From: Podarcis vaucheri
Lineage: Eukaryota
DNA length: 64,000 nucleotides
Strand: one strand, 5' to 3'
NCBI GenBank assembly: GCA_965113315.1
Contig: OZ220375.1
Made by a program: the position numbers and the translations under genes. The notes beneath the pieces were generated by a model, which ran no database searches, had not been told where the DNA came from, and worked only from the letters and a program-made list of their open reading frames with translations. Positions 2,150-64,000 of this stretch are shown piece after piece. Within the stretch, counting starts at the first letter, position 1. Each line of letters begins with the position of its first letter.

Positions 2150-2910
2150 CACCGGGCAAGCTGGCAACCCCAACCGGGCTGAGAGCAGCCGCTGCGGGGT
2201 CGCGCCGCGCGCTGAGGAGCGCCCGACGGGGCACTATTTCTGCATGGCATTGAATTGCAGCAGCAAAGGGACACGGGGAGCGGGGAGGCGGCAGGATACG
2301 ACGCCGCCCCAGCAGCGAGGAAAGAGCGAGCCGAAGCCAGCACGCGCGCTCGCTCGCTGGCGCGCAAAGGCCTGTGGGCCACGGAACGGAGGGAGGGGAG
2401 GTCAGAATGCGGAGAGGATTGTGGGTAGGAGGGGAGGGCAGGAAACAGCCTTCTTCCTTGGGGAGGGAGGTTTCCGGTTCCGGCCGGGCCTGTGTGAGTT
2501 GCAGCCTGGCAGTGCCCCCTCCACTCCCCCACCCCAGTGGGACCAGAAACGCCCCCCGCGTCCGCTGGGGGCAAGGCGAGGGCCAGGGGGCTTCCCCCCC
2601 AGCACCAATCCTGCCGCACAAGGAGCAGCCCCTGCCGGGGGCGCGGAGGAGGCTGGGGCAGCGCCACACACCGGTGAGTGCGCCGTCCCTGCTCGCCCCC
2701 CCCCCGCTCGGCCGCATAGGTTGGGCCCCAGGGCCTCCCCGCCAGCCCGGCCCCGCTCCCTCGCTTGGGTTAACTTCCGTCCCGTCCTATGATTCGCCGC
2801 CCCCCGCCCCGCCCGCTCGCCCGGCCACTGCGAACTCGGTTCGCCCCCTCCCGCCCGGTTCGCCTGCGCGACCCGCTCCCTCCGCCCCCTCCCTCTTCTC
2901 CTTCTGCATC
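2150..2910. promoter_or_regulatory. ZNF865: CpG-island promoter of ZNF865; non-coding exon 1 ends at 2673
   Basis: Very GC- and CpG-rich. Tandem ETS-like TTCCGGTTCCGG at ~2472-2483, GC boxes, and a strong donor CCG|GTGAGT at 2673/2674. Confidence 0.75.
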
Positions 2911-3436
2911 CAGTAGCCTCACAGCTGGCCCCCAACCAGAAACCTGCGTTATGTCACTTTTCTCCCTTCGCTCCCCTCCCCGCCAACTCATATGCACATC
3001 CAACCTCAAGCTGGAATTGTCATCCCACATATTGACTTTTATCTTTAACCTTATAACCTAGCACGGATGACTGTTTCCTTCAAGCCTCTCGTGTATCCGC
3101 TGCTTTCCCCGTAGATGTAGTCACATTCCCACCCCATCCTGCATTTTACCTTGGTGGTCAACTCCACATTACTAATTCTAGATATAGATGGGGGCTCTTC
3201 TACTTACTGCAGGCTTGCAACCCTGCTGCCTGTTGCAAGCACCTTCCCTCACACTGTTTTCTCGTCCTGATTCTCCCCCCATGCTATTTTATTAATGTCT
3301 AGGAAACTGCCTGACACCATTTCAGACTCTTAGTCCATTTAGGTTACAGTAGTGGTTTGCAGCAACTGCCCAGGGATTCAGATGAGTCTTTCCCAGACCT
3401 CCCTGAATATGGAATAGGTTGATCCTGGGACTTTTT

Positions 3437-3497
3437 CATAGAATTGTAGAGTTGGAAGGGACCTCAAGGGTCATCTTGTCCAACCCTTGCAATGCAA
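3437..3497 (-). mobile_element. 3' tail of a CR1-tailed SINE or CR1 LINE
   Basis: catagaattgtagagttggaagggacc...tccaaccc is the reverse complement of the tail of the SINE at 41114-41264. Confidence 0.6.
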
Positions 3498-4881
3498 AGT
3501 ATGTTTTCTGTGTCTGATCCATAACCCTTCTCTTTGGATGCTTTTAAAAAAAATGGATGAAGAAAGTGTTACTCAAACCTGAGTGATAGCCACCTTCCCA
3601 AACAGATTTATTTCTAACTGCATCTACAGATTGCAGAGGTATAACCCTCACAGTGCTACTCTTGAACCTCAACACACTATTCTTACCCACCACTGACTGG
3701 TAAATGTGTTATATAATACTCCCGCCCCACTGCAGGCCCCAGGGGCATCTTGTACCCTTCATCATCAGTGTGAGGAATGACTGGACTTCTACAGTTTCAG
3801 TTAGAGCCCTCTCTGCTGCCTCCCACCCATTTCATGCCCAGGGTTATGCAGTACTTTGCTGCCCTAAATTGTAAACTGGCAGAAGCTCTTCAGGTTATGA
3901 AGAAAAGGTCATTCTCAGGTCTGCTTAACCAGATCCTTCTGTAATGGGAGATGATGTAATTTTGCACACACACACCCACACCCAAAATTGCTGCACAAAG
4001 AGTTTTATCTTGTGCCCCATAGGGATTAAGCAAAATTCCTTATCTGTGCATCTTTTTTTTTGACTTATTCTGTTCTGCTAGTGATGAAAAGGGATAAGGA
4101 TCTATACAAAACATTGCAGGCTTGATACTGGAATTTTTGCTTGGTCCTCTATTTCTCTCTCTCTGGCTATGTCACTGGGTGTAGCCCAAACATCTTAACT
4201 ACATCTGTAGTGTTTTTCATACAGGGTGCAATTATCATCTGGGAATGTAGCCAATTGAAATATTCTTCATTCATTCTTTTCCCTGTGCCACCACTTGAAA
4301 AACTTTCAGGTGTCTTTGTCCCTGCAGCACAACTGCTTTGCCTCGGTTATTGTGTGTTTGAATTGACCCTTTGTGGAGAATTAACAGGCAATTCCTGACT
4401 TGGAAAGTGTTCAGGGGAGGGGGATAAAAATGGGGGGGGCTTTATTGGAGTTATGGTGTTTCTTAAAAATGCCTTCTACATGTGGGGTTTAATGGGAATC
4501 CCCCCTCAAAAGAGAGAGGTAGATCCATGACATTTCCAGATGTATAGGGTTAAACCAACAATGCAACTTGGCTGCCAAGTATCTTAGCAAGCTTAGTTAC
4601 ATAACCCAGGAGTTCTGCCTCCTAGTGCTACGGGTTTAAATTGATGCACAAGACTCCCATTTCCTCTCTCAAGGGCAGAGGAACCCTAGTTCGTAGCCTT
4701 CCACCCTCAATCTCCTTGGTTTCTTGTCCTGCTGCTATATTCCTCCATTGTTGTCATTCTTTCAACCCAGTCCACACCCCTGAAATCCACTAAGGCCCTC
4801 GCAGCTTTCTCCTAGATGATCCTGGTCTCACTTTATCCATGCCTCCATTGCTACCTCCTTTTCTTTACCTCATTCTTGGTA

Positions 4882-5093
4882 CAGTGGTACCTCGGGTGAA
4901 ATACGCTTCAGGTTACAGACTCCACTAGCCCAGAAATAGTACCTCAGGTTAAGAATTTTGCTTCAGAAATCGCACGGCGGCGCAGCAGCAGCACGAGGCC
5001 CCATTAGCTAAAGTGGTGCTTCCGGTTAAGAACAGTTTCAGGTTAAGAACAGACCTCCGGAACGAATTAAGTACGTAACCAGAGGTACCACTG
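4882..5093 (+). mobile_element. Tc1/mariner-type MITE, family A
   Basis: TIRs CAGTGGTACCTC...GAGGTACCACTG, TA on both sides, internal GCTTCAGGTTA repeats. Closely similar copies at 31908, 39211 and 44245. Confidence 0.85.
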
Positions 5094-5857
5094 TATTCCA
5101 TTGTTCCCAGACCTCTGCTTCATTGCCCCATTTAAGGTAGATGTAAATAAGGCAGACACTGCACTGTTAATAAAATCTGTATTTTTTAATATAACTCCAG
5201 CGATAGGCATTGGGATATGTCTGTATTCAGTACAGCTCCCAGCACTTGGCTTCCATTGTTTCCTGTTGCAGTGCATTCCACTCCTCATGTATGAGAAATG
5301 TGGAGAACTGAGGTTGGATCCAAACAAGGTTAGTTGAACTTAAGTTCCATTGTTTTCAGAGGGAATTAAGCATGTCTGACTATCTTCTCCCATTGATTTC
5401 AGTGAGACCTAAGTAGGTTCAGCTAACATAGTCTGCCTCCAACCCCTGGCTTCTAAATCTTACATCTGGTGCATTATAACCCACCACATTGCCATTTGCT
5501 GAATTAGACCAGTTTTCTTTTAAATCTAGGGCAGTTTGTTAATGGAGGGGGTTGGGCTGGAAATGGGTGGTGATAGCAGTGCTGTGTACTACACAACTTC
5601 TTATCTTTGTCTTGCATGGAAAGAAGGGAGGTGGAGAAAGGGTGGGTATTTGGGATTCTTATCTAAGTATTTCCTGATACTTTAAAACTCTGAAAGTTTT
5701 CTCTCTCTGTGTAAGTATATATGCAGAAAGTTGGTAAATGCAAGAAGCATTGAAAGTAACTACAAAAATGAGGCAAATTTAAGAACCCACAAGAAGGTTT
5801 TTATTTTTTTACTTTCTGAAGTGGCTGACTCCCCACCCCTCCCCCTTTTTCTTGCAG

Positions 5858-6199
5858 GGGTCTCACATTTGACTATTCCTTTGTGGAAAGTGCATATTTG
5901 GAAGAGAAACTGTGCAGCTTGTGTGCATATAATCAGATGTGGTGATCTTGCATATCACATTAATTGTTGGTTGTACATACACTCGAAGGCCATAGCATTC
6001 CAGGGTGTGCACATGGAGATGAATATATGTGTGATCATTATACTGGAGGCTATGGTTTCCTGCTGTGACTGTACGAAACAAAACACATGCGTATGTGATC
6101 ATCATATGTGATGATTTACATCGGGTTTCCTGCTTCCTAAACAGAAGTGCCTTCCAGCCTAATGTGCAAGGCAGTCCTTGAGACGCCCTCCCCCCAAGA
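5858..6199 (+). other. ZNF865: Candidate internal non-coding (5'UTR) exon of ZNF865, strongly self-complementary
   Basis: Acceptor cccctttttcttgcag|G at 5857/5858 and donor AGA|GTAAGT at 6199/6200. Lies between exon 1 and the coding exon. Several uATGs and nested inverted repeats. Confidence 0.55.
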
Positions 6200-6332
6200 G
6201 TAAGTCAGCCAGTGCAGTGGGACCACTCTAAAGCCCTACGTGGCTTGGCCCCTACATCCTCCAGAGGCTACCTGCTTTTCTGCATCCCATTGTATCCCAA
6301 CATTGGAAGTGGATGGTAAAATGCCTCCCATG

Positions 6333-6461
6333 CCAGACTTTTAAAGCACATGGCTTCCCCCAAAGAGTCCTGGGAACTGTAGTTTGGTAATTGTAGCTTT
6401 ATGGTGTTGAACTACAGTTACCAGGATTCTTTGGAGGAAGCTATGTGCTTTAAATGTATGG
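6333..6461. mobile_element. Palindromic MITE-like element
   Basis: ttaaagcacatggcttccc...gggaactgtagtt and aactacagtt...gaagctatgtgctttaa form one long inverted repeat. Confidence 0.6.
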
Positions 6462-6878
6462 TGTGGATGTGACCGATGGTGACAATGATTTACCAAATGG
6501 TAACCTACTGCAGTGGGCCTGGGTACATCTGTCGTGTCCACCTACATGGTGGTGAGACTCTTAGGACACATTTGAAATTGAAGGGAGGTGGTGAAAAGCT
6601 CTTCTGTTCATGGCTAGATGCTGCAGAAGACCATGTGTTCCCCCTCACTGTGGTAAGTTTCTGCTGGGTAAAATGGTGGCCCGTGCTCCCCATCAGTGCC
6701 CTCTATTGATGATCATCAAACTGAACCTTTATGGAACTCCCTTCCTTTGTAAAGTCACTGGAGACCTAACTGGAGCAAATATTGACAACAGTGCAAGGCT
6801 TTTCTGTTTGGAGAGACACGTAATAGCCAGAGATAGACAAATAAGATGTTATATATGGATATTGAAATGGACCTTTTA

Positions 6879-7003
6879 CAGTAGTACCTCAGTTTTTGAA
6901 CGTAATCCACTCTGGAAGACCGTTCAAGTTCCAAAACGTTCCAAAACTGAAAACCCTGTATGGAAAACTCACTACAGAAGCCACGAAAACTGAGGTACCA
7001 CTG
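6879..7003. mobile_element. Short Tc1/mariner-type MITE related to family A
   Basis: TA|CAGTAGTACCTCAG...CTGAGGTACCACTG|TA. Confidence 0.7.
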
Positions 7004-8249
7004 TACTTAAATTTACTTACCTTCCCCTTGTCTTATCAGAAACAGATTGCCATTATGAAATATAAAATATTCACAAATGGATGAATTTCCATAAGTCATA
7101 CAGGTTGCAGAATTCTGCATTTATGGGTGCAGAATACGGGAGGATCTTGAATGCAGAATAGTTTATATTTTATTATTAGGCCCACACTGTTCTAGATAAG
7201 ATGGGCAAGTAGAAAAGCATTCAGCCTGAAGGGATGAGAAGCCCACTTCCTTGAGGCAGAATCTTTGACGCATCAATCCTATACACATTTTAGTTTGTAT
7301 CCCATCACGACCCCTCAGCCTACCTTATCTTACTGGGTTGCCATAAAACAGGTGGGGGAACCCTCTTCAGCCCAACAGTCATTCTCAAGGAGTGGGGCAG
7401 GTAAAAGTGCCATAGGTGTGCCTCATCTTCAAACAGTTGGCTATATACCAGCCATGCAAAAGCACATCCACCCATCTCTGCATCTAGGCAATTGAGACAT
7501 TACCACAGTGGCGGAACACCTTTCAGCCAAGCAAAAACCCTTGAGGAGGATGCAAATAAGGGCTGGTGAAAGGGGCGTGGCCCCAGGGAAAGGGGTGTGG
7601 CTTGGGTAGAATTCCAAGGGCTGGGTGGAGAGGGCAGTGCTTGGCCTCTGAGCCTGAGTTCCCCCCATGCCTGTTATAAAATGTGGCAGCCCCATGTATG
7701 TATTCATACCTAGAGGGGCATGTTTGGGACTATGCCATTCTATAACAATCCTGTGTGGTAGGTTAGGCAGAATAAGAGTGGCTGGTTTCAGGTGGCATGA
7801 GAAACCTTTCTAGCTGAGTGGGAAGATGGAGTTTTCCATGTTCAAACTTTCCACACTGGCTTTCAGCCCTGGTAACCTACATTGGCAGAGCCCAGCATAT
7901 TCGAGCAAGGAATGCCACTTTGCAGAGGAGTTTGTTTTAAATAGGCAAACCCCAAACTACAGGGACAAGCACGGGCTTCTGAACTCCCCAACGCGAGCCT
8001 GGCCTTGGAATGCTTTGTACCTGTGACCTCCGAGAGTCTCGTTTTTTAACCTCTGCTTAATACCAGGACTCCATAAATATTCAAAGAACTAATGCTTTAG
8101 CTGCATTGGAGCCAACTAGTACTGAATGGGTATAAACCCTGCTTGCCACTCAAAAACTGGAGGATTGTCAAGCTTAGGAGAGTGAGTCACATGTGCTCTC
8201 ATTGAGAGCAGGAACTAAAGCTTAGAGGCAGCACAGATGGTTTGAGACA

Positions 8250-9040
8250 TATCCCGGTATATTTTAAGAATGTTAGAACAGGTAAATGCCATCCATAAAA
8301 GGTTTGTGGGGCTAGAGAAACACCCCATGAAAAAAAGTTACAATATTTGGGCCCTTTTAAAAGCAATTAAGGACACAATTGAGGTGTGTAAAATGATGCC
8401 AGCATAATACAATAACCCAGGATCTTCCAATGGAATAGAAGGGTAGGAGATTTTTTTTTTTTATAAAAATTTTTATTGGTTTTTGACAATTATTATAAAC
8501 ACAAACATTACACAGTACGTACAAACAAACAAACAAACATATAAAGAAACATGTATAATTTTGAATCCTTTTTTCTTAAACCTTACTTCACCGACTTCCC
8601 CATACCTCCCCTTTCTGCATCCCAATTTCCAAATTTATTTCAGCAAATCTTACCCCTTAGTTTTATCAAATTTTCCCAGAAGGGTAGGAGATTTAGGACA
8701 GACAAAAGGAAGTCCTCCTTTACCCCACGTGTTTTCTGTGGGATTTACTTGGTGATGAGCACCGATTTAGGTGACTTTAAAATTAGATTAAGACAAATTC
8801 ACAGAGAATAAAGCTCTCCGTGGGTAGCTATCATAATGACTATATACTATTATACAACTTCTGGGATGAGAGACAGCATGCCTCTGTATGCCAGTCTCTG
8901 ATGGACAACAGCAGAGGAGACAGGTATTGCCTTCAGGTTCTGCTTGTGAGCTCTGCAGATGTTTCTGGACAGCCACTACAGAGGCTATATGCTGGACTAT
9001 TTGGCCTTTAATCTGATGCAGCGAGGTTCTTGTTCTTATA
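8250..9040 (+). mobile_element. Decayed CR1 LINE 3' end, interrupted by a younger insertion
   Basis: Remnants resemble the CR1 ORF2 end (aattgaggtgtgtaaaatgatg; ttagacaaattca) and the reptile CR1 3'UTR (atgctggacta...ctgatgcagc...ttcttat). Boundaries approximate. Confidence 0.5.
8454..8677 (-). mobile_element. 5'-truncated poly(A)-tailed retroelement (L1/Tx1-type 3' end)
   Basis: Poly-T and TTTATT at the left end. Perfect 17-bp direct repeat AGAAGGGTAGGAGATTT at 8437-8453 and 8678-8694 (target-site duplication). Confidence 0.8.
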
Positions 9041-9350
9041 CCTGAGACCCTGGAGAGACACAGCCAGTCAGAAGTAGACAATATTGGGTTTGTAGACAAG
9101 TCTGACTGAATATAAGGCGGCACCATGGTTCTTTGCAATTAATTTTAACAACTGGCAACTTTTTCTTTTTTTAAATCGGAAAATTCTTGACCCATCCCAT
9201 TGTGTAAATGGAACATATCAGATTTTTTTTTTTAAAAAAAATGGGGCCACCACAGCAAACAGTGCTGGTGTCTTGGATATGTCTGGTGTGTGTCTACATT
9301 GGTATCCCGTTTCTCTCCTTTGTCTAGGCAGTGCCCCCTCCCGGGCGGAG

Positions 9351-12290
9351 ATGGAAGCCAATGCAGCAAGCGACGAGGGTGTGCATTTCCAGAGCTACCC
9401 CTTCGACTTCTTGGAGTTCCTGAACCACCAACGCTTTGAACCTATGGAGGCCTACAACCACGAGCACGCCAAAGCAGTCGCCGCCCTCCCCTGCCCACAG
9501 CCACAGTACGACTACACCCAGCCGCCCGCTGCCGCCCCACCTGCCCACTTTGACCGTGTCCCCACCGCCGTTGGCACCTCCAAGCCCAAAGCTGAAGGCC
9601 CATCCTCCTCCTCTTCCTCAGCAGCCGCTTCTGCCAACGTTCAAGTCAAGAAAGCCGAACCGGGGGCTCCTGCACCACCACAGCAGCAACAACAGCAGCA
9701 GCAGCAGCAACAACAGCAGCAACCACCCTATACTGGTCCAGCAGTGGTGCCAGCGACAGGCCAGCCTCTCTTCGATAGCACAGCTGCAGCGGCAGCCGCT
9801 GCCGCTGCCTACAACACTCCTCAGTGGGGCATTGTGGACCTTTCTGGCCACCAGCACCTCTTCAGCAGCCTGAAACGTGGGCAGGCCCCACCCCCAGCTA
9901 CAGCCACTGTTGCCACTGACAGCCAGGCGGGCAAAGACGACAAGAACTACTTCCGGCGCTTGAAATATTTCATCGACCGCCGTTTCCCGTGCGGCGTGTG
10001 CCAGAAATCCTTCAAGCAGTCGTCCCACCTTGTGCAACACATGTTGGTACATACAGGCGAGCGGCCCTACGAGTGCACCACCTGCGGCCGCACCTACAAC
10101 CACATTTCCAGCCTCATCCGGCACCGTCGCTGCCACAAGGACACCGAGGATGCCACGGCGGCTGCCAATGCGGCCGCTGCTAACGCAGCCGCCGCAGCAG
10201 CTGCTGCAGCAGCAGCCGCCGCAGCTGTTGCCACCAACGCAACTGCTGCTTCTGGAGCCGAGGGAGCAGCTCAGCCTCCTACTCAGAGCGGCAACCCTCA
10301 GGTGGTTCCCACATCCGCTGGGACGGCAGCCGCGTCTGCCCTCAGTGCTGCCATAGCTCAGGCGGAAGGCCCGTTCACCTGCTCTCTCTGCTGGAAGGTC
10401 TTCAAGAAGCCAAGCCACCTGCACCAGCACCAGATCATCCACACGGGCGAGAAGCCGTTCTCATGCTCCGTCTGCCAGAAGAGCTTCAACCGACGCGAGA
10501 GCCTGAAGCGGCACGTGCGGACCCACTCGGATCTCCTGCGAGTGCAGTGCGGGGTTTGCGGCAAGGAGTTCCGGGACGCTTCCTACCTTCTGAAGCACCA
10601 GGCTACCCACGCGCCACCCGGAACCTTGCCGCCACGCCCCGAGTACAAGTGCGACATCTGTGGCAAGGGCTACGTGGCTCCCCAGAACCTCCTGCGCCAT
10701 CGGCAGCTGCAGCACGAGGGAGCCCAGCTGCCCAAGGACGGCACCAATGCCCTGTCCTACCTGCCGCCGGGAGCTTATCTCCTCCCACAAGACCCACAGG
10801 CTACCGGTTCTGACGGCGACACCAAGCCCACATCCTACGGGCTGTTAGGTCACCCGCTGCTGGTGGGGACGGCAGCGGGCAAGAACTTCTGCTGCGGGAT
10901 CTGCGGCCGCGGCTTTGGGCGCCGGGAGACGCTGAAGCGCCATGAGAGGATCCACACTGGGGAGAAGCCTCACCAGTGTGCCGTGTGCGGGAAGCGCTTC
11001 CGCGAGTCGTTCCACCTCAGCAAACACCACGTGGTGCATACACGGGAGAGGCCCTACAAGTGCGAGATCTGCGGGAAGGTGTTTGGCTACCCGCAGAGCT
11101 TGACCCGCCACAAGCAGATCCACCGGCTGCAGCTGCCTTGCTCTTTGCCACCCATGGGGCCCTCGCTGGCACCCATGGGTCCTTCGCTGCCGCCGCCTCC
11201 CGAAGGGCTGACCTACGGCTGCTCCGACTGTGGAGAGCGCTTCCCCGATCTCTTCCACGTCATGAGCCACAAGGAAGTTCACGTGGCCGAGAAGCCGTAC
11301 CCGTGCGACGTCTGCGGCAAGTGCTTTGGCTTCATTGAGAATCTCATGTGGCACAAGTTGGTCCACCAGGCTGCCCCCGAACGGCTCCTGCCACCAGACG
11401 AGACGGCCGCAGCGGTGGCGCCTCTGGAGAACGGGCTGGCCAGTGGCGACAACATGACGTCTTTCGAAGACCACCACCCCACCTTGCCCAGCGGGGAGCG
11501 CTTCTCCTGCTCCATCTGCGGCCAGACCTTCAAGCATTTCCTGGGCCTTGTGACCCACAAGTATGTTCACCTGGTGCGGCGCACGCTGGCCTGTTCAGTC
11601 TGCGGGCAGAGCTTCGCGGGGGCCTATGACCTGCTGCTGCACCGCCGCACCCACCTGCAGAAGCGGCACTTCTCCTGCCCGGTGTGCGGCAAGCGGTTCT
11701 GGGAGGCCGCCCTCCTGATGCGCCACCAGCGCTGCCACACCGAGGAGCGCCCTTACCGCTGCGCGGTCTGCGGGCGCGGCTTCCTGCGCTCGTGGTACCT
11801 GCGCCAGCACAAAGTGGTGCACACCGGCGAGCGGGCCTACAAGTGCGCCCTCTGCAACAAGCGCTTTGCCCAGTCGTCCAGCCTGGCCGAACACCAGCGC
11901 CTCCATGTGGTGGCTCGGCCCCAGCGCTGCCCCACCTGCGGCAAGACCTTCCGCTACCGCAGCAACCTTCTGGAGCACCAGCGGGTGCACCTGGGCGAGA
12001 AAGTCTACCGCTGCGACCGCTGCTCGAAGAGCTTCTTCTACCTGTCCTCCATCCTGCGCCACCAGCGCTCCCACGATGCCAAGCGTGAGCTGCGATGCGG
12101 GGCCTGCCTCAAGCTCTTCAAAGACCCCAAGTACTTCAGCAAACACGTCCAGGCCCACCAGGGAGGCCGGCCGTTCAAGTGCAGCACCTGTGGAGAAGCC
12201 TTCTCCAACACCTATGGCCTCAAGAAACACCGCCACATCCACAAGATGGAGCGCTTTGCCGCCATGGGAGGCCACAAGGAGCAAGCCTAG
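9351..12290 (+). CDS. ZNF865: Zinc finger protein 865 (979 aa, 20 C2H2 fingers, one coding exon)
   Basis: Acceptor ttctctcctttgtctag|G at 9327/9328, ATG at 9351. Motifs MEAN..GVHFQSYPFDFLEFLNHQRFEPME, TPQWGIVDLSGHQHLF and KDDKNYFRRLKY match recalled human ZNF865. 20 CxxC..HxxxH fingers counted. Confidence 0.95.
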   Translation: MEANAASDEGVHFQSYPFDFLEFLNHQRFEPMEAYNHEHAKAVAALPCPQPQYDYTQPPAAAPPAHFDRVPTAVGTSKPKAEGPSSSSSSAAASANVQVKKAEPGAPAPPQQQQQQQQQQQQQQPPYTGPAVVPATGQPLFDSTAAAAAAAAAYNTPQWGIVDLSGHQHLFSSLKRGQAPPPATATVATDSQAGKDDKNYFRRLKYFIDRRFPCGVCQKSFKQSSHLVQHMLVHTGERPYECTTCGRTYNHISSLIRHRRCHKDTEDATAAANAAAANAAAAAAAAAAAAAAVATNATAASGAEGAAQPPTQSGNPQVVPTSAGTAAASALSAAIAQAEGPFTCSLCWKVFKKPSHLHQHQIIHTGEKPFSCSVCQKSFNRRESLKRHVRTHSDLLRVQCGVCGKEFRDASYLLKHQATHAPPGTLPPRPEYKCDICGKGYVAPQNLLRHRQLQHEGAQLPKDGTNALSYLPPGAYLLPQDPQATGSDGDTKPTSYGLLGHPLLVGTAAGKNFCCGICGRGFGRRETLKRHERIHTGEKPHQCAVCGKRFRESFHLSKHHVVHTRERPYKCEICGKVFGYPQSLTRHKQIHRLQLPCSLPPMGPSLAPMGPSLPPPPEGLTYGCSDCGERFPDLFHVMSHKEVHVAEKPYPCDVCGKCFGFIENLMWHKLVHQAAPERLLPPDETAAAVAPLENGLASGDNMTSFEDHHPTLPSGERFSCSICGQTFKHFLGLVTHKYVHLVRRTLACSVCGQSFAGAYDLLLHRRTHLQKRHFSCPVCGKRFWEAALLMRHQRCHTEERPYRCAVCGRGFLRSWYLRQHKVVHTGERAYKCALCNKRFAQSSSLAEHQRLHVVARPQRCPTCGKTFRYRSNLLEHQRVHLGEKVYRCDRCSKSFFYLSSILRHQRSHDAKRELRCGACLKLFKDPKYFSKHVQAHQGGRPFKCSTCGEAFSNTYGLKKHRHIHKMERFAAMGGHKEQA
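9681..9722 (+). repeat. Mixed CAG/CAA repeat encoding Q14 in ZNF865
   Basis: 42 nt of CAG/CAA codons. Confidence 0.9.
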
Positions 12291-16681: not shown

Positions 16682-19600
16682 AAAATAAGAATTGGAAAGC
16701 GTATGTCCCATGCATTGAGAGGGCTCCAGATTTGCTTGTTTTGCTAACCGTGGGTGTGGAGGGAGCTTCACTCTAAGAATCCCAAGTAACTAGACCACTG
16801 GACAGGGCTTCCTGAAGTGTTGGGACCATGTGAAGGGCACAAGAACACGAGGGCCTGTAGATCCCCAAGAACTGCAGCAAAAAAGGAGATGGATACCCAC
16901 AGTGGCTAGAATCAGGTTATCAGAGCTTGAAACTTTAATACGAGCTGGGCTGTGTGAAGAGCAGAATCCTATACCCAGCCACAGGAGAAAGATCAAGGTG
17001 GGTTTGCCAGAAATCTTGCACTGTCTTCTACTAGAAGGGGTTTTCTGCCGTCTTGGGATCAGGGCAGTGGCTAGGGCTTTCTTATTCTAAGTGAGGTGCC
17101 TCTGCTACATGAGCCACAGCTCTCCAACAAGTTGATATGAAGAAGTGGGCAAGGTAGAGGAGGTTTGGTGGTATCTCACTGACATTTTAAAATGTTGAGG
17201 TCATCCCTAGAAATTGAACATTCGGAAGCAAACAGTTGAGTACCCGTACTTCCAACACTCTTCTCTGCCAGTTTCATCTAGGCTACTGGAGATGGAGAAG
17301 GCTCGGATGATCCTTGGAAGCAAACATGCTGGCATTCAAAATATGCAGGAAAATTTCAACATTGCAGTTTTACACACTTTCAAATGTTGCTGTTGAAATT
17401 GAAATTTTTGTTAAGTCCAAAGCATTAACAAGACAAGTATCGGCATACCAAGCAGGATGCTTTTCTTTCTCTTTTTGCACTTCAGGAACAGAGCGTTCCA
17501 ATGGTATCTAGAAGCTGGCTGAATTTAAATCAGAATGTTAAACTTTGCAAGCAAATAAAGCGAGGAAGAATTGTTTTTGAGAAACCTTTCCTCCTCCTTA
17601 ACTTTACAGGCTTAATGCCAGATCAAGGTGTTTGTTCATGTAGCCCAGGGCGGCCCAACTTTACAAACCAAGTAGGCCGCAAACGTACTTTGACAGAGAA
17701 CCCATGGGCCACAAACTTTGAGAAGGCAACGCAAGGCCTGGTGGGGAGGGGCATCATATGTTGCCGAGGGCCACCAAAAACGGTTTTGAGGGTTGTGCAT
17801 TGGACCACCCTGATGTAGCCTGTGTTGTCTCCTGCGTTTTCCAGAACCCTCAGGCGAAAAGACTTTCCTCACTTGCTATCCAATCCTTTCACATTAAGAT
17901 GTCAGTAACTGAACCTGGGACCTCTGTGCAAAGTCTCTGCTCTACGACTTGAGCTAGGTTCAGTTTTGGCTCATCCCTAAGAGGATGGGCAAGTTGGAGA
18001 AGCTGGAGAGCATCTGGCCCAGAAGACCGCGTTTGGCTCTTGCTTCCTTTTTTCTTTTGCTATTATGTATGTGGGAGGGGCCTAGATTAACACCAGGTAA
18101 ATCTACATGATCATGTGTGACAAGGCATTTCTGTGATGCTCCATTTTGAAGGACATACTAAATATTTTATCTGCTATCACAAATGGAGCACTATGAAAAA
18201 CATTGACAATTTAAACTGTAATACTTACAACATGGAATTGTTTTCTCTTGTGAGATTGGTACAATGCACCCAGCTCAGACAATGAAGCAAAAGTGCTGCA
18301 TATAGGAAATGGCTGTCAAAACCTGGGAGGAGACCACGTAAACTTCAAATGTTTACACTGCAAGATCTGCAGTGAGAAATGCAGAACTAAGAATGCCTAG
18401 TCTCGGGGAAAAGCTAGAAAACTAAAGAGTTTTCATAAAGTGATGTGTGACTGAAAGGTCTAAACTGATAATATTTGGAGTGGATATTTAAGGTAACTGT
18501 TCAGTGGAACTATCTTTGGTAACAGTATGTAGCCTGAGAGGTTGGTTCAACAATTTTTTCTACCCAAATTTTCCCATTGGGGTTATATGCAAATTCAACT
18601 ATGTTTAACAAAATATTTTTTAACTGGCTAGTGCTTGCAAAGCAAAATGTCAAGAATAATTTGGTTTTAAATGTGGCTACAACAACTTTTTAGAAGATTT
18701 TATTTCTACCTTTGGATTTCTGCTTACAACTTTTACAAGACTGGGGGACCTTTCTTCTAAAGACCTTTTCCCCAACTTCGTGTAACATGAACAAATCTTG
18801 ATTTTCATCTTCTTTATTTACTTATAGCTCTTTTCAAATGCATTTAAAAAAATCATTTCAGATTTGCCCTCCTGAGGGTAAAAACACACATTAGAAATTG
18901 TGGGTTCGCTATGATCGCTATGAGCAGGACCATGCATCTGCTTTTTTAAAAAAGCAACAACAACCCAATACTGCATCAGTATACCTAGTGTTGGTATCTA
19001 ATAGTACAATCCTATGTCTACTCAGAAGTAAGTCTAATGAGTTCATTGGGCTTTCTTCCAAGAAAACTGATATAGGATTACAGCCCAAACCATCTGCACT
19101 CTAGCAATTGTGTACAGTTACACAAATGAAGTAAATGATAACTTGCTTATTTCATATAATACCATTTTTCTTCTGCTAGCAGTGGGAAGGGGCAGACACC
19201 TGTACAAGGCACTGGTTTCTAGAAGTGCTCAGCTATTCCTTGCCCCAATTTCAGAAATGTTACCGACCGTTAGCCATGCACTTTAGGCGCCTCTCTTCGT
19301 TAGTTTGGTTCAGATGTAATGCCCAAACCAAGAAAAGTAGTACGATTTGGTTCACGGGTAATTGCAAACAGACAAACAAAAAGAGCTGCAAGATCCTAGC
19401 CCTCAAGCCTATGGCTACATTTAGATGGAATGCCAAACCACACTTTACATAATCAAGCCTTTAGACTTATTAATACATCATTGTTGTACCTCACCCTTCC
19501 AACAGGAGCACAGGGTGGCCTAAAGCTACAAATAAAACAAATATTGTTGGCGGCGGCAGCAACAGCAGCAGCATACTACCTTGAGAATTGCAAAACTCAA

Positions 19601-41113: not shown

Positions 41114-41264
41114 TGTAACTCAGTTGGTAGAACATGAGACTTTAAATCTCAGGGTTGTGGGTCCAAGCCCCACTTTGGGCAAAAGGATTCCAGCATTGCA
41201 GGGGGTTGGACCAGATGACTCTTGCTGTCCCTGCCAACTCTACAGTTCTATGATTCTATTCTAT
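41114..41264 (+). mobile_element. tRNA-Lys-derived SINE with CR1-type tail
   Basis: Head taactcagttggtagaacatgagactttaaatctcagggttgtgggtccaagccccactttgggc resembles tRNA-Lys(CTT). Tail gggggttggaccagatga...ccaactct...ttctatgattctattctat. Confidence 0.8.

Positions 41265-51648: not shown

Positions 51649-64000
<12,352 letters not shown>

Follow-up and report, generated by a model that had tools for sequence, protein, structure and literature searches.

Intron 1 of ZNF865 in Podarcis vaucheri carries, 3 kb into its length, a 342-nt stretch with the signals of an exon and the symmetry of a palindrome, and the question that it raises is whether this is an exon kept silent by its own structure, the relic of a transposon or something else. 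A sequence-only reading of the window (the whole stretch of DNA analysed here, 64,000 nucleotides long) had described positions 5858 to 6199 as a candidate 5'UTR exon that folds end to end into a multibranch, G-U-rich RNA. Following up that description computationally, we favour, with a probability of about 0.5, a structure-masked 5'UTR poison exon, possibly derived from an old transposon palindrome.

The host gene and its flanking exons

A 979-aa C2H2 zinc-finger ORF begins at 9351 on the + strand of the window. Its N-terminal 215 residues resemble a rattlesnake protein (85% identical) and match frog proteins named zinc finger protein 865, in a search that gave 11 matches among 7,999 candidates scored, and judged by these matches the host of the candidate exon is the reptile ZNF865 orthologue, which bears out the gene call of the sequence-only reading. 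The exact ZNF865 protein was absent from the protein collection searched, and none of the 617 pattern matches from a metagenome scan with its N-terminus was confirmed. ZNF865 has been described as a broadly expressed, little-studied zinc-finger gene linked to senescence (bioRxiv 10.1101/2023.10.25.563801). For cattle, the annotation gives the gene three exons (PMC3375255), and an isoform 202 exists for mouse Zfp865 (PMC13110116), neither of which is proof of the candidate exon in that species. The exons flanking intron 1 (2674-9327) are the following:

2494..2673, + strand: 3' part of the non-coding exon 1 of ZNF865, with donor ACCG/GTGAGT and RNA depth
9328..12290, + strand: ZNF865 coding exon, with its acceptor at 9328 and its ATG at 9351 (979 aa)

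In stranded RNA from organism B, a close relative, reads on the + strand cover exon 1 in its 3' part and the coding exon at its start. The sense-strand depth of the bin 2494-2740 was 0.86 and 4.2 in the two runs, versus 0.04 and 0.36 in the preceding bin, and depth is near zero 5' of ~2490. Exon 1 has an ATG at 2244 that shares the frame of the ZNF865 ORF (2244-2673), and the 151-aa N-terminal extension that would start there was set aside because a relative shows, among the indels listed, frameshifting deletions of 4 nt at 2356 and 1 nt at 2594. The coding exon opens with a tandem acceptor (TAG/GCAG, at 9328 and 9332, 4 nt apart). Low sense-strand RNA depth (0.3-1.0) was also present in unique intron bins at 3729-4469 of the window, which may represent pre-mRNA or a further minor exon.

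Splice signals and upstream ORFs of the candidate exon

The candidate exon and its parts are located as follows:

5831..5857, + strand: polypyrimidine tract (15 of 15 pyrimidines, plus CTRAY) and acceptor CAG
5858..6199, + strand: candidate cassette exon of 342 nt with ten ATGs, called from splice motifs; zero RNA depth in two runs
6013..6111, + strand: uORF of 32 codons that shares the frame of the main ORF and holds two more in-frame ATGs (6019 and 6052)
6162..6199, + strand: ATG opening an out-of-frame ORF, which in the in silico spliced form crosses the junction and ends 89 nt past the main start

The acceptor CTTGCAG/G (5858), the donor AGA/GTAAGT (6199) and the 32-codon uORF named by the sequence-only reading are all present, and a canonical branch point, tract, AG and GT were found around the exon by rule-based scoring against consensus motifs. 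By the same scoring, acceptor 5858 is the strongest of the nine intron 1 acceptors that pass the filter. The full splice rule was passed by only three acceptor-donor pairs in the 64 kb on both strands (12 when the branch-point condition is dropped), and one of the other two is a coding exon of CCDC106. A second acceptor lies within the exon at 6145 and would define a 55-nt exon (6145-6199) in which the sole ATG left is the one overlapping the main ORF. Elsewhere in the window, a 64-nt exon-like stretch at 57170-57233 has a branch-point motif, a tract, a GTGAGT donor and stops in three frames (fold z -1.6); it may belong to another gene as a poison or UTR exon. At 18828-19027, a predicted exon-like stretch of 200 nt overlaps small perfect hairpins (18828-19200; z -3.8) and is likely derived from a repeat.

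The stop of the uORF (6109-6111) sits 88 nt 5' of the exon end at 6199. Nonsense-mediated decay (NMD) follows a distance rule by which the stop lies more than 50-55 nt 5' of the last junction, and these 88 nt are in agreement with it, on the condition that the upstream ATG is used.

A coding role for the exon was rejected because Pfam gave no match for two exon frames, including the 83-aa exon part of a stop-free + frame, and because the atlas matches for P0001, a machine-predicted ORF of a relative that spans 5707-6159, were all <0.9. That stop-free frame runs for 141 codons (5686-6111) from the intron through most of the exon and is open in the relative too. When translated exon frames were used as protein queries, the + frame found one relative (P0001), the long - frame gave two matches that were dropped, both being unrelated tandem-repeat proteins, and the other - frame gave none. 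Furthermore, the exact uORF peptide was absent from the protein collection searched, and none of 10 orthologues with a locatable N-terminus has an N-terminal extension resembling the exon.

Predicted fold of the exon

All the stems listed by the sequence-only reading can be found where it placed them, but the multibranch fold built from them was not recovered. In the ensemble of 5810-6222 the mean pair probability is 0.00-0.01 for hairpin 5921-5982, for hairpin 6093-6121 and for the helix TGTGCAG/CTGTACG, and 0.13 for the GACT/AGTC helix, and enforcing the helices of that fold yields -98.0 kcal/mol versus -106.9 kcal/mol for the minimum free energy (MFE) structure, a cost of ~9 kcal/mol. What is predicted is one long rod with pair probabilities of 0.6-1.0:

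5932..6112, + strand: predicted rod core, in which 5932-6007 pairs with 6036-6112 (helix P 0.57-0.98)
5987..6058, + strand: apical hairpin that tops the rod (lower helices P 0.86-1.0)

The hairpin at 5987-6059 is the sole inner hairpin of the earlier description to hold (z -4.08 on + and -2.3 on -), and none of 300 shuffles was as stable on the + strand. When transcripts were cut and folded, the three-hairpin arrangement of the sequence-only reading was the best fold of a transcript ending at ~6090, and the rod won once 6091-6112 were present. Because the rod wins only after these bases, the two predicted folds may be successive states. The circular fold of the exon had a z of -2.8 (40 shuffles).

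The statement that the exon belongs to no known ncRNA family was upheld by Rfam 15 (miRNA, snoRNA, scaRNA and ribozyme families; gathering score or E<=10), which left it without a match, the best Rfam match being SNORD53/92 (17.6 bits versus a cut-off of 46, E 0.97). A C/D snoRNA was rejected since the C-box-like GTGATGA at 6108 is followed by no CTGA downstream within the exon. The hammerhead core motif is CTGANGA, and a hammerhead was rejected by eye, as GAAAC is present and this core is absent. A metagenome scan with the hairpin pattern gave no matches. A tRNA-like Rfam match at 41116-41173 barely reaches its cut-off (29.5 bits) and lies beside a repeat also found at 3436-3495; it is probably the head of a SINE.

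Two further features were noticed within the exon. An exact 11-nt repeat, GGTTTCCTGCT, occurs at 6054-6064 and 6124-6134, and a 12/13 repeat occurs in the same order at 6030-6042 and 6094-6106, an arrangement that suggests an internal duplication of ~40 nt or a repeated binding motif. The consensus of the Pumilio element is UGUAHAUA, and TGTACATA at 5972-5979, mostly paired in the predicted rod, matches it.

Fold statistics

The description of the structure as G-U-rich was not sustained: G-U pairs make up 12 of its 93 pairs (13%), versus 15.6 +/- 2.8% in the MFE structures of 100 shuffles. Neither was the strand bias, since the whole exon has a z of -2.43 on + and -2.40 on -, that is, equal on both strands, an outcome that the sequence-only reading had itself named as speaking against it. 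The fold of 5857-6188 has a z of -3.06 on + and -3.34 on -. For the rod core the values are -3.9/-4.3 on + and -2.8/-1.9 on - (-3.62 and -2.89 in a re-run), and at 17 control loci the difference between the + and - z spans -2.9 to +2.9. In a Watson-Crick-only, strand-neutral self-alignment, the ratio of G-U to A-C positions is 10:5 or 20:10 depending on the scoring choice, and 20:10 has a p of 0.05 against 50:50 and of 0.29 against the local G+T-rich composition. The argument that G-U positions reveal selection on the RNA rather than a decayed palindrome thus fails the shuffle, the composition and the control-locus comparisons.

Scored on a grid over the window (1,004 of 1,064 windows of 180 nt, with 15 shuffles each), the best 180-nt window of the element has a z of -3.26, which places it 22nd of the 1,004 and at the 18th locus, in the top ~2%, and this z fell to -1.99 with 30 shuffles. 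The stability of the fold is ordinary for a window so rich in repeats, and folding alone does not mark the element out. Just 3' of the donor, at 6333-6461, lies a high-copy palindromic repeat with a z of about -14 to -19 and a DNA depth of ~3.6e4 in its bin.

Complementarity between branch point and donor flank

The sequence-only reading overlooked a complementarity between the branch point and the flank of the donor, which involves two outer arms:

5816..5830, + strand: left outer arm, with the branch-point-like CTGAC at 5825-5829; A5828 lies 30 nt before the exon
6200..6217, + strand: donor GTAAGT and right outer arm AGTCAGCCAGTGCAG (6203-6217), the inverted repeat partner of 5816-5830

The arms are complementary at 13 of 15 positions (inverted repeat I2). 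Within them, the branch-point motif at 5822-5830 is perfectly complementary to the donor flank at 6203-6211, forming a predicted 9-bp core (P 0.98) that joins the branch-point-like CTGAC to donor positions +4 to +12. When the branch-point-bearing acceptors of the window were combined with its GTRAGT donors, 3 of the 1,760 combinations had a complement of at least 9 nt, and one of the three is the exon's own pair. Furthermore, helices between 5850-5865 and 6179-6199 are predicted to pair the acceptor and the first exon bases (TCTTG and AGGG, P 0.67 and 0.46) with the 3' end of the exon. Given the match of branch-point motif and donor flank, all the helices taken together would seal the exon from one end to the other.

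The symmetry reaches beyond the exon into both introns, with every helix on a single axis near 6022. In the Watson-Crick-only self-alignment it has a z of 6.3-6.9, reached by none of 1,000 shuffles, for a centre picked post hoc, and a local palindrome score ranks the site no higher than 10th among the 16 top loci. The trinucleotide AGT stands on the outer side of each of the perfect 8-nt arms 5823-5830/6203-6210 (at 5820-5822 and 6211-6213).

Copy number and likeness to transposons

The sequence-only reading had listed dispersed genomic copies of the MITE (miniature inverted-repeat transposon) type among the findings that would count against it, and such copies were not seen at the likeness used. 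DNA contigs of organism B have a depth of 13.1 on 5952-6198, the single-copy level, against 1e4-1e6 for repeats of the same intron; reads and contigs of relatives were mapped at 86% likeness, a setting that covers copies of 86% and above. The 64-kb window holds no second copy. Because of this single-copy depth, the stretch is not a young MITE.

The exon stretch is like the non-autonomous DNA transposons (MITEs) of lizards (PMC3014272) in its size, in its inverted ends, in being palindromic inside and in the 3-nt repeat at its flanks; it differs from them in being single copy at 86% likeness. Chapaev and Harbinger elements of lizards have TWA target repeats (PMC3014272), and the flanking AGT and the arm end are unlike those of the lizard families described there: TWA/CAC (Chapaev), TTA/TAA (Harbinger), TA (Tc1/mariner) and 8-bp repeats (hAT).

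Sequence constraint in relatives

Over the span of P0001, the differences at non-silent sites number 5/86 in the upstream intron, 1/32 in the zone of branch point and tract, and 2/240 in the exon (exon vs upstream flank, Fisher p 0.015), in a comparison that hides silent changes and has a flank sample of 105 nt. The two exon differences correspond to two residue changes in ~100 exon codons. One of them would give the rod an additional base pair (its P rising from 0 to 0.95); the other lies outside the rod and would break the closing helix of the sequence-only reading together with a small side hairpin. In run X1 (organism A), 3/173 differences were found in the core versus 9/153 in a flank contig of unproven orthology (p 0.07, two-sided). 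Finally, organism B keeps 0.68 of the exon words, which corresponds to ~4 changes versus 7-8 expected (p 0.13). The three comparisons point in the same direction, with small counts from close relatives that are perhaps not independent. No compensatory change was seen in the relatives compared, in which silent partner changes of P0001 are invisible. With the strongest acceptor of the intron and a conservation above that of the flank in a relative, a 5'UTR cassette exon with inhibitory upstream ATGs, as first proposed, was judged plausible.

RNA reads over the exon

In the stranded RNA runs X13 and X15 (12-13% of each), depth over 5458-6198 is 0, while the flanking exons reach ~1-6x. Full inclusion would be expected to give 9-18 reads, the upper bound on inclusion is 0.16-0.65, and the dip in depth alone is no finding. 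No splice, back-splice or editing reads were seen for the exon in these runs: no reads cover the stretch, and none of the 15 joints listed is a splice junction. Zero reads fit an exon that is skipped or cleared by NMD, and equally one that is unused. There is precedent for such scarcity, in that ordinary RNA-seq has few reads of conserved cryptic poison exons (PMC11632617).

In run X1, which may be RNA, a single 173-nt contig falls on the exon (5939-6111; 3 differences, depth 2.6); the run has nothing on the flanking exons, and a further contig of 155 nt lies in the flank. Runs X2-X4 share 0.15-0.22 of the words and were counted as no evidence.

Discussion

The reading to which we give a probability of about one half is that of a poison exon in the 5'UTR of ZNF865 that is masked by structure. 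An imperfect inverted repeat of ~400 bases in intron 1 carries strong splice signals and would fold as one long rod. The default outcome would be skipping of the exon, with the U2 and U1 sites both covered by the clamp, if the pairing masks them as we suppose, and a helicase or a dsRNA-binding factor that opens the clamp would lead to inclusion. By an alternative route, slow transcription could leave the early three-hairpin fold in place and likewise result in inclusion. The included exon would add uORFs, one of them overlapping the main start (ATG 6162), and would place the stop of a uORF 88 nt 5' of the last junction, which would send the mRNA to NMD and silence it. Because the ORF lies wholly in the last exon, such a stop would be the only kind of junction-dependent NMD trigger available to ZNF865. 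An old DNA transposon may be the ancestor of the palindrome, and as origin and function are separate matters, such a descent would be compatible with a poison exon.

An improbable elaboration of this proposal makes the element a two-state RNA switch, in which the three-hairpin fold gives way to the rod after 6091-6112, the clamp of branch point and donor seals both ends, and ZNF865 itself or a dsRNA-binding protein sets the splicing state. Such a switch would parallel, in a vertebrate, the P5SM-TFIIIA system of plants, and it would be sauropsid-wide and possibly exapted from a transposon palindrome.

Somewhat unlikely, in our judgement, is the main rival explanation, by which the stretch is a decayed old miniature inverted-repeat DNA transposon, that is, a cryptic exon without use or regulatory role that an inherited palindrome keeps silent. 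That every helix falls on the same axis fits a DNA palindrome, the perfect 8-nt arms are flanked by a 3-nt AGT repeat, and the length is MITE-like in a window rich in palindromic repeats that fold better. Moreover, no G-U or strand signal exceeds the controls, no RNA reads were found, and conserved complementary regions show enrichment at splice sites that are inactive or cryptic (PMC8052449). Against such a relic, no second copy was found in the window or, at 86% likeness, in the DNA contigs of organism B. The AGT is not TWA and the arm does not start with CAC (PMC3014272), and a 3-nt match is easily due to chance. In addition, a divergence below that of the flank and a full set of strong splice signals are unexpected under neutral decay.

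The inner rod or its hairpin could instead work as part of the intron, whether as a substrate of Microprocessor or ADAR or as the precursor of a small RNA, with the splice signals being secondary, and this we consider clearly unlikely. The hairpin at 5987-6059 is the most stable part of the element (z -4.1) and of about pre-miRNA size. The norm for a pri-miRNA is a stem of ~35 bp with a single-stranded base, whereas here the stem continues for ~90 nt with no single-stranded base near 35 bp, and Rfam gave no miRNA or snoRNA match (best E 0.97). The 173-nt contig of run X1, its only unique-looking contig on the exon, nearly matches the rod core, but that run may not be RNA, the depth is 2.6 and a 155-nt flank contig accompanies it. 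There is precedent in DROSHA-bound hairpins that overlap exons (PMC5473138; PMC4006729), such as that of DROSHA exon 7 and other Microprocessor-bound exonic hairpins, which are likewise miRNA-sized and on an alternative exon (PMC5473138); unlike them, the ZNF865 hairpin tops a much longer predicted rod. Least probable is a constraint on the DNA itself (for instance, an intronic enhancer) with fold and splice motifs incidental, which would suit a stretch 3 kb into a first intron with unremarkable fold statistics, and lower divergence alone cannot separate a DNA from an RNA function, but it leaves unexplained why the best acceptor of the intron and a perfect donor stand at the bounds, and why they are complementary.

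A poison exon masked by structure would have known relatives, none of them identical to it. A stem that hides branch sites holds down a poison exon of SF3B3 (PMC11162794), and the likeness is that a branch point lies within a predicted helix just 5' of an exon whose inclusion would cut expression. The SF3B3 structure is a local stem-loop of 14-17 bp, conserved from fly to human and tested with minigenes and SHAPE (PMC11162794). By contrast, the partner of the ZNF865 branch point is its own donor flank ~380 nt away, the whole exon is in the predicted fold, and the position is in the 5'UTR. Conserved complementary regions that loop out exons resemble the element in having complementary arms in the introns to either side of an exon, and they are tied to masked splice sites and low inclusion (PMC8052449). 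In human, such regions tend to avoid branch points (PMC8052449), whereas the ZNF865 arm covers one and its predicted pairing runs through the exon.

Structured cassette exons of plants (P5SM in TFIIIA, 45ABC, DEAD motifs) similarly place structured RNA over splice sites, are linked to NMD and reside in genes for nucleic-acid-binding proteins (PMC12218528; PMC3378873). The ZNF865 exon differs from P5SM in having no 5S rRNA or other Rfam likeness, a vertebrate host gene, no ligand known and a poison effect that would be of the uORF type, not of the coding frame. TFIIIA is a C2H2 zinc-finger protein, like ZNF865.

In the literature on ZNF865/Zfp865, splicing and structure, no description of the element was found in titles or abstract openings, subscription papers falling mostly outside this scope, and ZNF865 is absent from the supplementary text, possibly incomplete, of PMC11162794, PMC8052449 and PMC11632617. 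If the predicted fold is right, the unusual features of the element would be its 5'UTR position and a branch point whose partner is the donor flank of the same exon, with that exon folded throughout in between.

An unused relic would be an ordinary finding. If the palindrome derives from a transposon, a functional exon would make a clean case of exaptation. If real, the structure-masked poison exon would be a compact way of silencing an exon, with one helix hiding both the U2 and the U1 sites, and it would poison through the 5'UTR a gene whose ORF has no internal junction. It would thus provide ZNF865 with a post-transcriptional off switch.
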